64,000 bases of DNA from Ignavibacteriota bacterium (GTDB taxonomy: Bacteria; Bacteroidota; Ignavibacteria; UBA10030; UBA6906): the NCBI GenBank assembly GCA_963837815.1, contig CAWIOS010000015.1, positions 258,774 through 322,773 on the forward strand, read 5' to 3'. The notes beneath the pieces are model-generated. The model ran no database searches. It saw only the letters and a program-made list of their open reading frames with translations, and was not told the DNA's origin. A program made the translations under genes and the position numbers. Below, in pieces: positions 57,745 through 63,863 of this stretch (position 1 is the stretch's first letter; each line of letters starts with the position of its first letter).

Positions 57745-58949
57745 TTCGCGTGCCACTGCACCTCAGGCGCATCCTCCTTCTCCTCCTCCTCGTAGGCCTT
57801 CCCCGCCCGTCGCTCCCGCAGGATGAGATTCGCAAACGTCAGGACGAGCTGCAGGCGATACGGGATCAGATCCGCGACCTGGAAGGGAAAATCGGTGAGC
57901 AGCAGAAAAACGAACGGGAAACGCTCGACCTCCTTGACAGCTACGAGAAGAAGGGGACACTCATCCGCACATTGATCACCCGTCTGAAAAACGACGAAAC
58001 GACGCTCACGCACCGGATCGAGAACACCCGAAAGGGGATGGAGAAGCTCGAAAGCCAGCTCCAGTTTCTCAGGAAGCACTATGCCGCCTACGTGATTTCA
58101 GTGTACAAGCGGGGGAGGACGCGCGACCTGGAGCTTCTCCTCTCGGCGAATTCCGTCAACCAGGTTTACATCCGGAACCAGTATCTCAAGCGCTTCACGA
58201 ACCAGCGCCGCCGCGACGCGCAGGCGATCGCGAAAAAGCAGAAACAGGTCGAGGACACGCAGGCGCAGCTTTCCCTGCAGCTGAGCGAGGAACAGCGGCT
58301 CCTTGCGGAAAAGGGGGCGGAGGAGGAACGCCTTACCTCGCTCGCGGCGGACCGGAGGGACGCGCTCACGAAAATCAGGAAAGACCGGAAGTTCGCCCAG
58401 CGCGAGATCGAACGGCAGATGAGGGCGGCGAAGGAGCTCGAAGGGCTCATCGCCCAGCTCATCGAGGCCGACAGGATCAGGAAGGAACACGAAGCTGAAG
58501 AGGCGCGCAAGGCGCGCATCCCTGTCCCCCTCCCCGAGACGGGAACGCTCGAATCCCGGAAAGGAAATCTCCGGTGGCCGGTCAGCGAAGGGAGCATCGT
58601 CGCCCACTTCGGCAATCAGACGCACCCGACGCTGAAGACGATAACGCAGAACACCGGGATCGACATCGCGGCCCGCGTCGGCTCTCCCGTCTCCTCCGTC
58701 GCCGACGGGCAAATCTCCAAGATTCTCTGGCTCCCCTCGTACGGAAACCTCGTGATCATCTCGCATCCCGGCGGCTTCTATACCGTCTACACCCACCTTG
58801 CCGAAATCACCGGCGCCGAGGGACAGAAGGTCAAAGAGGGGGAAGTGATCGGGAACACCGGAGAAGCCCTCAACGGGCCCCGCCTTCACTTTGAGATCTG
58901 GAAGGGGAGAGAAAAACAGAATCCCGAACAGTGGCTCGGACGGCAATGA
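57741..58949 (+). CDS. Coiled-coil M23 peptidase (EnvC-like murein hydrolase activator)
   Basis: It has a long N-terminal coiled coil and a C-terminal LytM domain with HLHFEIW. Confidence 0.8.
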
Positions 58950-61585
58950 CGACGCGCGAGTGGCTCTTCCTGGGGGGCGTGACGCTGGCGGGACTGATTG
59001 CGCTTGTCCTCCTCCGGTCGCCGGTCGGCTTGGCGGAGGACCAGGTTACACGCATCCGGTACGGCATCCGCGGTACGGAAAAAGCCGACTCGAATATCGT
59101 TGTGATATTCATCGACCAGGAGGCGATCCGCTCGCTCCACTGGCCGGTCAGGCGCAACTTCTACGGGCTCATGCTCAAGACGCTGAACGACCTTCACGTG
59201 AAAGCGGTCGGTGTCGAGGCGTTTTTCGAAGAACCGAATCCCGAGTATCCTGAATACGACGACCTCCTTGCCCGCATGTGCGCGCTCTCCGGAAACGTGG
59301 TCCTCACCTCCTACTTCGACACGGTGGCCCCCCCGGGTTCTCCCGCGTGGCACGATTCACTTCCCGCAGGGCTCTTTGACTACCCTGCCGTTCTTGATGA
59401 CGTCCCTTCAGGCGGCGGCCCCCATCTCCCGTTCCCGTCGCTCCGGACGTCGGCGGCGGGGATTGGTCATCTCAACATCGGCGTCGGTTCTGACGTCGAT
59501 CTCTTCATCGGGGATGGGACCGCCAGGATCCCCGCGTTCGGTCTCGAGATTGCCCGCGTCGCCCTCGGTGCCGCGCGCACCGGCGTGGTTTCCAGGGGGA
59601 GGAGTGTGGAGTTCCGCCGCGAGTCGGGGACATTTGCATTCAGAACTACGTCCGGGGAAAATGCGGCAATCAATCTTCCCGGCGGCATCGGTTCGTTTAC
59701 CGCCTATCCGTTCCTCGAAGTGCTCCGCTCATATGACGCTCTCCGCACCGAGCGGGCGCCGTCGATCCCCGTCACGTCGCTCAGGGGGAAGATCGTCCTC
59801 ATCGGGCTCATCGCGGAAGGGAGGAGCGTCTTCGTCCCGTCTCCCGTCGATCCCCATCTGCCGGCCGTCCTTCTTCACGCCTCGGTGATCGACTGCATAC
59901 TCAGGGACCGATTCATCACGGTAATTCCCCTCTGGCTCGCGCTCCTTATCGGTGTGTGTTCGGCACTCGGGAGCGGGGCCTCGGCGCTCATGCTCCGGAC
60001 ACCTCTGAACAGGTGGTTCCTTGCCGGAATCCCGGCACTGCTCGTTATTCTCTCGCTCGCCCTCTTCGTGGCGTCCGGCGTCATCTTTCCCCTGGTCGCC
60101 CCCCTTCTCCTTGCTCTCCTTGGCGGCGCGGTGGGAATACTCAATCGGCAGGGGCGTGCGAAAGCCCGTGTGGAGAACATGGAGACGGAGAAGCATAGCA
60201 TCATGGAAAAGCTGCGCGACAGGGAAGCCAGGGTCGCGATGCTCGAGCGGGAGCTTGTTTCGATGGAGGCGGCACGGTTGGGGGACCGGACCGAAGAGCT
60301 TGTGGAAGAGCTCCGGAAATACAGGGCGGAGATCAGGTCACTCTCCTCGAAGGCGGACGACCTTGACGTGTTCAATCCTGCAGAAGGGGATCCCGGTGCG
60401 GACATGGCCGAGTTCGAATCCATGGTGTACGCGAAGAACGGCCCGATGTCGACGGTCGTTGATTTCGTGTCGAAAATCGCCTCGAGCGATTCGCCCGTTC
60501 TTGTCCTCGGCGAGAGCGGCACCGGGAAAGAGCTCGTCGCCCGGGCGATACACAGGCGAAGCCCCCGCGCCGGGGGGATATTCGTGGCGGTCAACTGCGG
60601 CGCGCTCGCCGAGTCGCTCCTTGAATCCGAGCTCTTCGGCCACGAGAAGGGCGCGTTCACTGGGGCGATCCGGGACAAACCCGGCCGGTTCGAGCTGGCG
60701 GACGGCGGAACGATATTCCTTGACGAGATCGGCGAGGTCTCCGAGGGCTTTCAGCTCAAGCTCCTGCGCGTGCTGCAGGAGGGGGAATTCGAACGCGTGG
60801 GGGGGACGAAAACGCTCCGTGTCAACGTCCGCGTCGTTGCTGCGACGAATGCCGACCTGCGCGAGCTCGTGCGCCAGAAGAAATTCAGGGAGGACCTCTA
60901 CTACCGGATGGACGTTCTGACGGTCTCCCTTCCCCCCTTGAGGGATCGGCAGACGGACATCCCGATACTTATCGAACATTTTCTCCGCCGTGAAGGGGGA
61001 GGTGTCCGCGTCTCCCGGAACGTCATGGACGCGCTGCAGAACTACCGCTGGCCCGGGAACATACGTGAACTCGAGAGCGTGATGAAGAGGGGGATGCTCC
61101 TTGCCAGGTCGGAGAAGCGCCAGATGGTGACGATCAAAGACCTGAATGAAGAAATCGCCTCGGCCGCGCGGGGGGCTGCGCCCGTCGAAGAACAGGTCCT
61201 CGAATCGCTCCGCGACAAGGCGTTCAGCCGGAGCTCCGTGACAGACACGGCAGATGAGCTGGGGGGGCTCAACCGGGGGACCGTCGCTGAATACCTCAGG
61301 GGGGAGTGCCTGAAGGCGTTCGCCGAATGCACGTTCGACATCGAAAAAGCGGTCCGAAGGATCTCCCTCTCCTCCGACCCGGAAATCAATGATCGTGTCC
61401 GGAAGAAATTCCAGGACTACCTCTCCAACATTGCCGAAGGCCTCTCCCCGTCACAAACATGGGAATCAAACCGGGTTGCCCTGAAACCGAAAAGCAAGAA
61501 CCTTCCCCAGAAATACCACCGGTACCTTGAGCAGGTGGGAGAGGCATTTTATCGCGGCGTCTGGAAAATGACATCCGTGACCTGA
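58946..61585 (+). CDS. Membrane-bound sigma-54-dependent transcriptional activator with an N-terminal CHASE2 extracytoplasmic sensor domain
   Basis: It has TM1 ([18 protein letters not shown]), a periplasmic domain of about 300 aa, three TM helices, and a coiled coil. The AAA+ sigma54 module has GESGTGKE and GAFTGA. A Fis-type HTH-like segment (...[18 protein letters not shown]) is followed by a C-terminal extension of about 120 aa. The start overlaps the M23 stop (ATGA-type overlap). Confidence 0.8.
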
Positions 61586-61647
61586 CCGCCTGAAACAGGC
61601 GATTTGCCCCAGAACACTTCGTTCACGCCGCTGTGCCTGATATTCCC

Positions 61648-62827: not shown

Positions 62828-62957
62828 ACTGTGCGGATTTAGCGGGCGGGCCCCCGTACCTCTCCAGGTCGGGGGCCCGGTGTTTTTCCGCGGTTGAAAT
62901 TCAGGACGGAATTCGGCTAATTGGTCCATAATCCGTATTCCTGTCCGAAGGGATTAT

Positions 62958-63863
62958 ATGAGGAATCTCGCCATACTCGTTTGCGTTACGTTCCTCTGTC
63001 AGGCTGGCTGCCAGAAACCCGCCCCGTTAACCGTAGAACCTGAGCCGGCATCGCCGGCTGCGTCGGTTTCTGTGACATTGCTCGCCAATCCTGACACGAA
63101 CATCGCCGTCGACCCGGTTGATTCAACCGGCGTGCTTCCGACGGACCAGACGAACTATTCCGGGCTCTTCCTCGTGAACAGCGTGAAGTACGACAACGGC
63201 CACGGGGTAATCTCCGGGGCATCGGTAATCGCGTACTTCGGCGACCGCAACAGGCCTCTTGTTGTGAACGGAAAGATCGTCGGGTACTACGGCATCGACT
63301 TGATGCCGTCTGCTGTCTTCCCCCTGAAACTCGGGGGGATCCCGATGGTCCGGTACCCGTACAAAATACAGATCGGGAACCGCGACACGGCATTTGGCTT
63401 CATGTACCGTGCGCCCGCATACTTCCTGGCGACGATCCAGCCACAGACCAGGTATGATTGGGACGATCCCGGACCCGACACGACACGGCTCATGCCGTTC
63501 CAGGATTCCGTCGTGACCCCCGAGGATCTGACCGTGCTGGCGCCTCCGGGCGGGAGCATTCTCTCCCGCCTGAAGCCGGTTGAACTGCGCTGGAAAGGGG
63601 ACGGCAATATCTCGATCATCGTCAGTTCGTATAATATACTGACAGGGAAAACGAGGCCGATCCTCCAGTTCCAGCCGGCTGTTAATACGGGAGATGCGGT
63701 CATCGACGCGAGCGTGTTGCAGCTATTGCCGCGCACGAAGTACTTCGTGTTCACGTTTATAATCGCCAACAAGGGTAATCGGCAGCTGAGCGGGATGTCG
63801 CCGACTGACAGGATACTGGTACAGGCAGCATCCGTCTATAACAGCTACCTCCAGATCCAATAA
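62958..63863 (+). CDS. Hypothetical lipoprotein
   Basis: It has a lipobox (MRNLAILVCVTFLCQAGC) and no recognisable family. Confidence 0.55.
   Translation: MRNLAILVCVTFLCQAGCQKPAPLTVEPEPASPAASVSVTLLANPDTNIAVDPVDSTGVLPTDQTNYSGLFLVNSVKYDNGHGVISGASVIAYFGDRNRPLVVNGKIVGYYGIDLMPSAVFPLKLGGIPMVRYPYKIQIGNRDTAFGFMYRAPAYFLATIQPQTRYDWDDPGPDTTRLMPFQDSVVTPEDLTVLAPPGGSILSRLKPVELRWKGDGNISIIVSSYNILTGKTRPILQFQPAVNTGDAVIDASVLQLLPRTKYFVFTFIIANKGNRQLSGMSPTDRILVQAASVYNSYLQIQ

Follow-up and report, generated by a model that had tools for sequence, protein, structure and literature searches.

A 64,000-nt stretch of contig CAWIOS010000015.1 from an Ignavibacteriota bacterium, below called the window (coordinates and genes refer to the + strand unless marked), carries near its right-hand end a gene for a membrane-integral sigma-54 enhancer-binding protein of 879 amino acids (aa), followed by two direct repeats, a sigma-54 type promoter and the genes g1, g2 and g3, of which the last runs off the window; a fourth gene, g4 (~235 aa), lies beyond it. 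The activator gene (58946..61585) was delimited from the list of open reading frames (ORFs), Pfam matches and homologue clusters, and its ATG overlaps the stop codon of the preceding M23 peptidase gene as ATGA; the overlap had been stated in the initial annotation of this DNA. That annotation took the locus for a module leading from an envelope signal through sigma-54 to envelope proteins, which is a reasonable reading.

The N-terminal half of the activator has the layout of a CHASE2 receptor, in agreement with the predicted order of one transmembrane helix, a periplasmic domain of about 300 aa and three further helices. Pfam family PF05226 (CHASE2) matches residues 30-340 (59033..59965) with E=2.1e-29 and 103 bits against a cut-off of 26.3, covering profile positions 21-252 of 257; a Pfam check of residues 30-330 had been suggested for this very domain. 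Hydrophobic segments at residues ~6-23 (helix 1; 58961..59014, peak 2.08) and at ~324-347, ~355-375 and ~378-400 (helices 2-4, together residues ~324-400; 59915..60145, peaks 2.39 and 2.65) give the 1+3 topology of CHASE2 proteins; they were located with a hydropathy scan and not with a dedicated topology predictor. Positively charged residues lie on the cytoplasmic sides of the helices, including the side after helix 4, and the ~300-aa CHASE2 domain should therefore be outside and the AAA+ module inside. Membrane and AAA+ domain are joined by a charged segment (residues ~405-485; 60158..60400) with heptad-like conserved sequence in an alignment of 24 diverse homologues, from which we infer a helical, coiled-coil-like cytoplasmic linker of ~80 residues. 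The sigma-54 AAA+ module with its lid (residues 497-745; 60434..61180) is equally clear: Sigma54_activat matches residues 497-660 (E=1.4e-68, 230 bits against a cut-off of 20) and AAA_lid_14 residues 666-745 (E=2e-19). The GAFTGA loop noticed earlier is found at residues 569-574 (nt 60650-60667), and in the 24 homologues G569, F571, T572, G573 and A574 are invariant, the position 570 being Ala in 20 and Ser in 4. The Walker motifs GESGTGKE and DEIGE are invariant in the same alignment, in which the protein is conserved over its whole length.

A homologue search with the activator returned 169 clusters at E<=1e-10, and the following figures come from the 120 among the matches listed. Nearly all of these align over almost the full length (51-100% identity) and derive from metagenome-assembled genomes labelled "Bacteroidota bacterium" or "Ignavibacteria(e) bacterium"; 119 of them contain both CHASE2 and Sigma54_activat, the exception being a truncated 537-aa protein (P0114). 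An exact look-up of the protein encoded in the window itself gave no match. When only the CHASE2/transmembrane part was used as query, an exhaustive search brought up 2417 representatives at E<=1e-3, and at least 50 of the best 150 carry both GAFTGA and Walker A, so that the fusion is not a one-off; cyclase-type relatives are also present among the nearest CHASE2 sequences. Nine full-length examples submitted to Pfam all possess CHASE2 and Sigma54_activat, and one of them (P0409) has in addition a canonical HTH_8. As judged from these sequences, the fusion is recurrent and widespread and comprises several subfamilies. In the other subfamilies (P0400-P0432, including P0409; ~840-900 aa) the CHASE2 part is no more than 25-36% identical; P0409 is a distant CHASE2 activator with a Fis-type HTH_8, and the others display no recognised DNA-binding domain. 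The fusion architecture is already visible in automatic annotations of the homologues, and in the literature searched we found no paper that treats CHASE2 together with sigma-54 or with AAA+ transcriptional regulators. The earlier remark that such a fusion is not commonly described holds for the literature searched, and the fusion itself is not rare. Descriptions of sigma-54 activators present them either as sensors in the cytoplasm or as response regulators that receive their signal from separate kinases. A survey of activators from Clostridiales found that most of their sensor domains have no transmembrane regions (PMC6615313).

The C-terminal region of the activator (61187..61582) is a putative DNA-binding domain that consists of a three-helix helix-turn-helix (HTH) and a five-helix extension. 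In the AlphaFold2 (AF2) model, residues 748-879 form eight helices (predicted local distance difference test, pLDDT, 94), of which the first three are arranged in the HTH pattern, and the HTH is nearly invariant across the family, starting with FSRSS[VI][ST][ED] and ending with [LF]RG. The curated NifA, RtcR and PrpR models align into this domain, through residues ~785-804. The domain had been called a Fis-like HTH; this family assignment was rejected, because Pfam HTH_8 matches neither the full protein nor any of 21 isolated C-terminal domains of the family, even at E<=10, and because the HTH profile of the family does not match the HTHs of 77 generic activators (best E=0.33), taken from a set of unrelated loci (L001-L080) that served only as a control for this profile. 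A relationship to the TetR family was considered as well. The profile of the C-terminal domain matches one TetR-family protein in PDB, represented by two constructs (4mxm/4mo7), at a borderline E=0.003, and no other TetR entry at E<=5; Pfam TetR_N weakly matches one of 21 C-terminal domains (E=0.03). Foldseek comparison of the domain model with PDB yields no structure at E<0.7, and FasR and HapR, which we take to be TetR-type regulators, appear only at E>1. The firm TetR-like assignment was dropped because a single TetR-family protein was matched. We treat the domain, as modelled, as an HTH that is divergent and unclassified and is followed by five further, conserved helices, and the case for DNA binding is built on the helix pattern of the model and on conservation, since HTH_8 finds no match and the TetR-like match is borderline.

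Analysis of the DNA downstream of the activator was extended to related loci: four (L081-L084) were retrieved by exact protein look-up and 80 (L085-L164) by a metagenome scan with the C-terminal domain only, and the counts of promoters and repeats refer to the 82 loci with enough sequence 3' of the activator stop. The initial annotation had placed a -24/-12 element about 180 bp downstream of the activator, and the element is indeed there, 177 bp 3' of the stop codon. It reads TGGCATgcgaaTTGCg (61762..61777), also written TGGCATGCGAATTGCG, and has the -24 GG at 61763-61764 and the -12 GC at 61775-61776. The match is not significant within the window (1 match against 1.6 expected), and even a stricter pattern, with 1 match against 0.23 expected, was equalled in 22 of 100 shuffles. 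Across the related loci, TGGCAY-N5-TTGN occurs within 420 nt downstream of the activator stop in 69 of 82, against a background of 0.021 per 420 nt (all loci, both strands), and in six further loci the promoter is displaced downstream and stands in front of g1. The search left the base after TGGCAY free, and 97% of the matches have a purine there, in line with the sigma-54 consensus; the element common to the loci can be written TGGCAY-R-N4-TTGN. Both the sequence TGGCATgcgaaTTGCg and its conservation thus place a -24/-12 promoter at the target gene, and sigma-54 is argued to be in use because the GAFTGA loop is near-invariant and the -24/-12 element is conserved. Some 12-16 nt downstream of -12, near the expected start of the g1 transcript, the loci share a moderately conserved GGCA(G/A)(A/G)AA, located in the window at ~61790-61800.

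Upstream of this promoter lie two putative upstream activator sites, direct repeat 1 (GGACCCCGCACTTCTC, 61648..61663, core CCCGCAC at 61652-61658) and direct repeat 2 (GGACCCCGCATTTCTC, 61669..61684, core at 61673-61679). The two are spaced by 21 bp and stand 78-114 bp 5' of the -24 element, in accordance with the two direct repeats, 21 bp apart and roughly 80-115 bp upstream, that had been noted earlier. Within the window alone the direct repeat is not beyond chance. Each 16-mer is one copy of an asymmetric, conserved core, TYCCCGCACTTC, which is present downstream of the activator in 63 of 82 loci in the orientation of g1, with a single reverse-strand copy in all 82; its CCCGCAC is almost invariant across the family, as is the HTH, which would suit a cognate pair. 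Most loci carry two copies, and a third is found in 9 of 51 non-redundant loci. Adjacent copies are spaced by 21 bp in 30 of 37 pairs and by 22 bp in 4, and the 21-bp spacing therefore puts them on one face of the DNA helix. A scan of both strands of 85 sequences showed that 59 of 67 paired repeat motifs are followed by the promoter within 260 nt, and two more occupy the same place on truncated or divergent loci. The significance of both promoter and repeats stems from this conservation in more than 80 related loci, and not from window statistics. From TGGCA back to the start of the proximal repeat the distance is 57-136 nt, most often 89, 104-105 or 110; as the distances vary to this extent, strict helical phasing between repeats and promoter is not claimed. 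The spacer between repeats and promoter (61685..61761) contains T-tracts ~10-11 bp apart (GTTTTCCCCATTTTCCCCGCCGTTTTC; lag peaks 9-11 and 20-21). They point to a possible intrinsic bend of the DNA instead of an IHF site; the signal is modest and seen mainly in close relatives.

Five loci (L138, L151, L154, L155 and L157) have 1-4.8 kb of other genes inserted between the activator and g1, and in all five the repeats and the promoter are found directly upstream of g1, at their usual relative distance. In L151 the insert encodes a Spy/CpxP-like protein as well as MacA- and MacB-like ones, and it also includes two genes of the opposite strand. Because the elements move with g1, they belong to this gene rather than to the 3' end of the activator gene. 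The order g1-g2-g3-g4 after the activator is found in essentially all loci that are long enough, with products of ~325, ~300, ~668 and ~235 aa. In the window, 273 bp separate the activator from g1, and 130 bp separate g1 from g2. The first gene is listed mechanically as an ORF starting with an ATG at 61766 (61766-62827), inside the promoter; homologues and a ribosome-binding site (AGAGGGGAGA, 61844-61853) support 61859 as the true start, so that g1 spans 61859..62827. Long antisense ORFs across g1, e.g. 62065-62268 on the - strand, are compositional artefacts.

The genes downstream of the promoter had been interpreted as an operon of three lipoproteins. The unit has four genes rather than three, as shown by L081-L084 and by synteny, and the lipoprotein assignment stands for the first two of them. 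g1 encodes a conserved 322-aa lipoprotein with an invariant Gly21-Cys22, g2 (62958..63863) a conserved 301-aa probable lipoprotein with an invariant Cys18, and a lipobox-like motif is present in 31 of 33 g1 and 28 of 34 g2 sequences. Neither matches a known family: g1 and g2 have no Pfam or NCBIfam match, and PDB profile searches gave nothing for g1 and only noise for g2 (best E=0.24, designed ankyrin repeats). The AF2 model of g1 (pLDDT 80) is rich in beta-structure and shows no significant fold match in PDB. A type V pilin-like identity was considered for g1 and g2, and nothing supports it. g3 overlaps g2 as TAATG at 63863, as had been described, and only its 5' end (63863..64000) lies in the window; in the source genome it would encode ~669 aa, which the homologues suggest to be a PorV/PorQ-like barrel with a transglutaminase-like C-terminal domain. 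Its signal-peptide Cys, located before an invariant Gln, is found only in the window and the closest relatives; other homologues have VSAQ, YGQ or YAQ, which resemble signal-peptidase-I sites, and the family has no conserved lipobox. The barrel, of outer-membrane type and in the N-terminal half, is suggested by NCBIfam PorV_fam in the g3 of L081 (E=6.3e-9, yet 35.8 bits against a cut-off of 90), by similarity to PorV in PDB (6h3i, E=1.3e-3 over 54 residues), and by Pfam TraF_2 or PorP_SprF matches in single homologues. The C-terminal domain is suggested by Transglut_core in L081 (E=9e-4, 19.9 bits against a cut-off of 23), by precomputed PF01841 matches in 7 of 115 g3 homologues among the matches listed, and by the invariant residues C554, H587 and D593, candidates for the Cys-His-Asp triad of a transglutaminase-like cysteine protease. 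g4 has a signal peptide and is secreted; it gave no Pfam or NCBIfam matches and no match in the PDB profile search.

Transcription of these genes as a simple operon is argued against by two features between g1 and g2. The first is a GC-rich, terminator- or attenuator-like hairpin (62832..62892; -41.1 kcal/mol, z=-3.6) with a T5 run at 62883-62887 just past the inner stem. A hairpin with z<-2 follows g1 in 49 of the 62 non-redundant loci compared (median -38 kcal/mol), and 1 of 67 coding controls reaches this value; the stem sequences differ among loci while the structure is kept. The second is a sigma-70-like element, TTGAAA-N16-GCTAAT (62894..62921), 36 nt 5' of the g2 start codon and without a further match in the window. 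Of 50 non-redundant loci, 23 have it, with an unvarying 16-bp spacer and ~36 nt before the start codon; it may serve this lineage as a promoter of the housekeeping type or be a site at which another regulator binds. A conserved GAATTCG/GATTTCG is found in its spacer. Rfam and tRNA scans of the window gave no matches. We think that g1 is the main sigma-54-dependent unit and the only gene clearly under the sigma-54 promoter, and that g2-g4 probably have their own sigma-70-type promoter with possible read-through from g1. The claim of a three-lipoprotein operon, as worded, is thus not borne out. A single sigma-54-driven operon of g1-g4, with the hairpin as an mRNA stabiliser or attenuator, is an alternative. 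It agrees with the conserved order of the four genes on one strand, with the overlapping or abutting g2/g3 and g3/g4 junctions, with a post-hairpin T-tract that is short in many loci, and with the fact that the sigma-70-like element is detectable in fewer than half of the loci. We consider it possible and on the whole doubtful in the face of so stable a hairpin in most loci, of a g1-g2 spacer that typically measures 100-170 nt against the tight packing of g2/g3/g4, and of a promoter-like element whose spacer length and distance from g2 do not vary where it is present.

The features described above are best accommodated by a one-component, membrane-integral sigma-54 activator that is encoded together with its own target promoter, and we regard this as the probable explanation. 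The periplasmic CHASE2 domain would sense an envelope cue, and the signal would pass through helices 2-4 and the helical linker to control the assembly or the ATPase activity of the AAA+ ring. The C-terminal HTH would bind the two (elsewhere two to three) direct copies of TYCCCGCACTTC, ~90-135 bp upstream of the promoter, and looping of the DNA would bring the ring to the sigma-54 holoenzyme, thereby opening the g1 promoter. Most g1 transcripts would end at the hairpin, and g2-g4 would be transcribed from their own sigma-70-type promoter with some read-through. The binding of the activator to the repeats, its action while in the membrane, the nature of the signal, and the function of g1-g4 are what we infer from the sequences. 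More tentatively, and as a proposal rather more apt to fail than to hold, the family could be the first class of integral-membrane sigma-54 activators. Here, CHASE2 would read an envelope cue, the ring would work at the membrane without a kinase or partner, the unclassified HTH would sit on 12-bp repeats of one orientation, the promoter would have to be drawn to the membrane, and g1-g4 would form a new outer-membrane assembly of lipoproteins, barrel and transglutaminase, made in amounts that follow the state of the envelope.

Several observations speak against the one-component activator. An RpoN box was not found in the 64-kb window, which is a part of a 534-kb contig. The -12 element is loose, with TTGC in 28 loci, TTGA in 22, TTGG in 11 and TTGT in 8, and the T-tract of the hairpin that would end the g1 transcript is short. 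The C-terminal domain has no match to any curated DNA-binding family, its TetR-like match being borderline, and enhancer-binding proteins typically bind dyads, so that direct repeats are unusual. Furthermore, we know of no characterised precedent for a hexameric AAA+ ring that is tethered by 24 transmembrane helices and acts on promoter DNA, and the activator may be released by proteolysis.

Regulated proteolysis is indeed the alternative that would solve this geometric problem. The CHASE2/transmembrane part would keep the protein inactive at the membrane until a signal triggers cleavage in or after helix 4; this would free a soluble linker-AAA+-HTH fragment that hexamerises on the repeats in the cytoplasm, and only this form would be active. 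The linker between helix 4 and the AAA+ domain is long and could contain a cleavage site, and an M23 peptidase gene adjoins the activator gene, though this enzyme would be periplasmic and act on murein. In some loci the distance between the activator gene and its putative target reaches 4.8 kb, which indicates that strict co-localisation of gene and protein is unneeded. On the other hand, no site-2-protease-type gene is conserved in the activator neighbourhood (L081-L084), nothing in the activator sequence identifies a cleavage site, and characterised CHASE2 proteins signal through the membrane and not via cleavage. We consider release by proteolysis unlikely on this evidence.

Still less probable is that the repeats are bound by another regulator, and that the CHASE2 activator works without sequence-specific DNA binding and uses its C-terminal domain for protein contacts. 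Activators without DNA binding are known, e.g. FlgR of Helicobacter and CtcC of Chlamydia, and the absence of a match between the C-terminal domain and the curated DNA-binding families would fit such a case. In the confident model, the first three helices of the domain nevertheless show the typical HTH arrangement, and the recognition helix is invariant; the NifA, RtcR and PrpR models align into the domain up to residue 804. The repeats stand at a distance typical of activator sites, their paired motif is essentially unique to the promoter in each locus, and no other regulator gene is conserved in the neighbourhood (L081-L084). Finally, the idea that promoter-like and repeat sequences are chance matches without function, which the window statistics alone would allow, is effectively refuted by the preservation of position, orientation and spacing across ~75 loci whose other intergenic sequence has diverged completely.

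The proposed membrane-integral activator shares features with several known systems. It resembles the NtrC/NifA/PspF class in its AAA+ domain with Walker motifs and GAFTGA, in sites ~100 bp upstream of a -24/-12 promoter and in a C-terminal DNA-binding domain; the NCBIfam NifA, NorR and NtrC models align over residues ~490-800 without reaching an equivalog cut-off. Members of that class have a cytoplasmic receiver, GAF, PAS or V4R sensor instead of a four-helix CHASE2 module and typically bind dyads instead of asymmetric direct repeats 21 bp apart, whereas the protein described here has no HTH_8 and carries the five-helix extension. CHASE2 receptors, reportedly defined by Zhulin and co-workers in 2003, include adenylate and diguanylate cyclases, histidine kinases and Ser/Thr kinases, and have the same arrangement of one transmembrane helix, ~300 periplasmic residues and three transmembrane helices; to our knowledge, their ligands are still unidentified. 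The difference lies in the output, which here is a sigma-54 AAA+ activator, so that the receptor itself would touch DNA and RNA polymerase. ToxR, CadC and TcpP likewise combine a periplasmic sensor, a membrane anchor and a cytoplasmic activator in one polypeptide and recognise direct-repeat sites. They provide a working analogy only: each has one transmembrane helix and, at its N-terminus, a winged helix of the OmpR type, and works with sigma-70 polymerase without using ATP. They are not AAA+ rings and show no sequence relationship to the CHASE2 activator. In the Psp and Zra systems (PspF/PspA; ZraSR/ZraP) sigma-54-dependent envelope proteins are also made upon an envelope or membrane signal. 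There, a soluble activator is controlled through PspA or the kinase ZraS, in contrast to the fused sensor-activator considered here, and the target genes are unrelated.

What is new in the present case, as far as sequence comparison can tell, is that one conserved regulatory module unites a sigma-54 activator that receives its input through a transmembrane CHASE2 domain, a DNA-binding domain of no recognised class, and sites in the form of direct repeats. In this family, and in at least one broader set of subfamilies, an extracytoplasmic receptor is fused directly to an ATPase predicted to remodel RNA polymerase, which raises the mechanistic question of whether a membrane-tethered AAA+ ring can reach promoter DNA or must be released. 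The short asymmetric putative binding motif, the fixed 21-bp phasing, the defined promoter and the one clear target gene make the system suitable for the test bench. CHASE2 would gain a simple transcriptional read-out, usable to screen for signals, and four conserved envelope proteins (g1-g4) are highlighted in an uncultured lineage.

Upstream of the activator, the ORF list and Pfam define a cluster of three genes encoding a TPR protein (55202-56971), a DUF4292 protein (56968-57744) and an M23 peptidase with a coiled coil (57741-58949). The module had been regarded as appended to this TPR-DUF4292-M23 cluster, and the M23 gene, as the last of the three, does directly precede the activator in 30 of 33 loci. 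The association is common without being part of the conserved core: in L152, L156 and L162 no tblastn match to the three genes was found, and the activator, repeats, promoter and g1-g4 are kept. In L162, the locus examined, the upstream genes are unrelated. Because these divergent loci retain the activator and g1-g4 without the cluster, we regard the activator with g1-g4, and not the M23 link, as the conserved core.

A group of sister loci (L128, L130, L137, L141, L138 and L151) has genes for a Spy/CpxP-like periplasmic protein and MacA/MacB-like proteins after the activator, and the repeats, the sigma-54 promoter and g1 follow farther downstream. These genes are preceded by a conserved AAACCTTTC-N~12-GCGTGTCCAA, which resembles a promoter for an extracytoplasmic function (ECF) sigma factor and is located in the first ~60 nt past the activator stop in L128, L130, L137 and L141 and at 1605-1665 in L151. 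At the other end of the neighbourhood, 5' of the TPR gene, the window contains two divergent genes on the - strand (53301-54023 and 54203-55168), which encode a lipoprotein that has a coiled coil plus TPR repeats and looks YbgF/CpoB-like, and a 321-aa protein without a Pfam family. The same divergent pair is present in L081, L082 and L084, and L083 has the TPR gene alone at this place.

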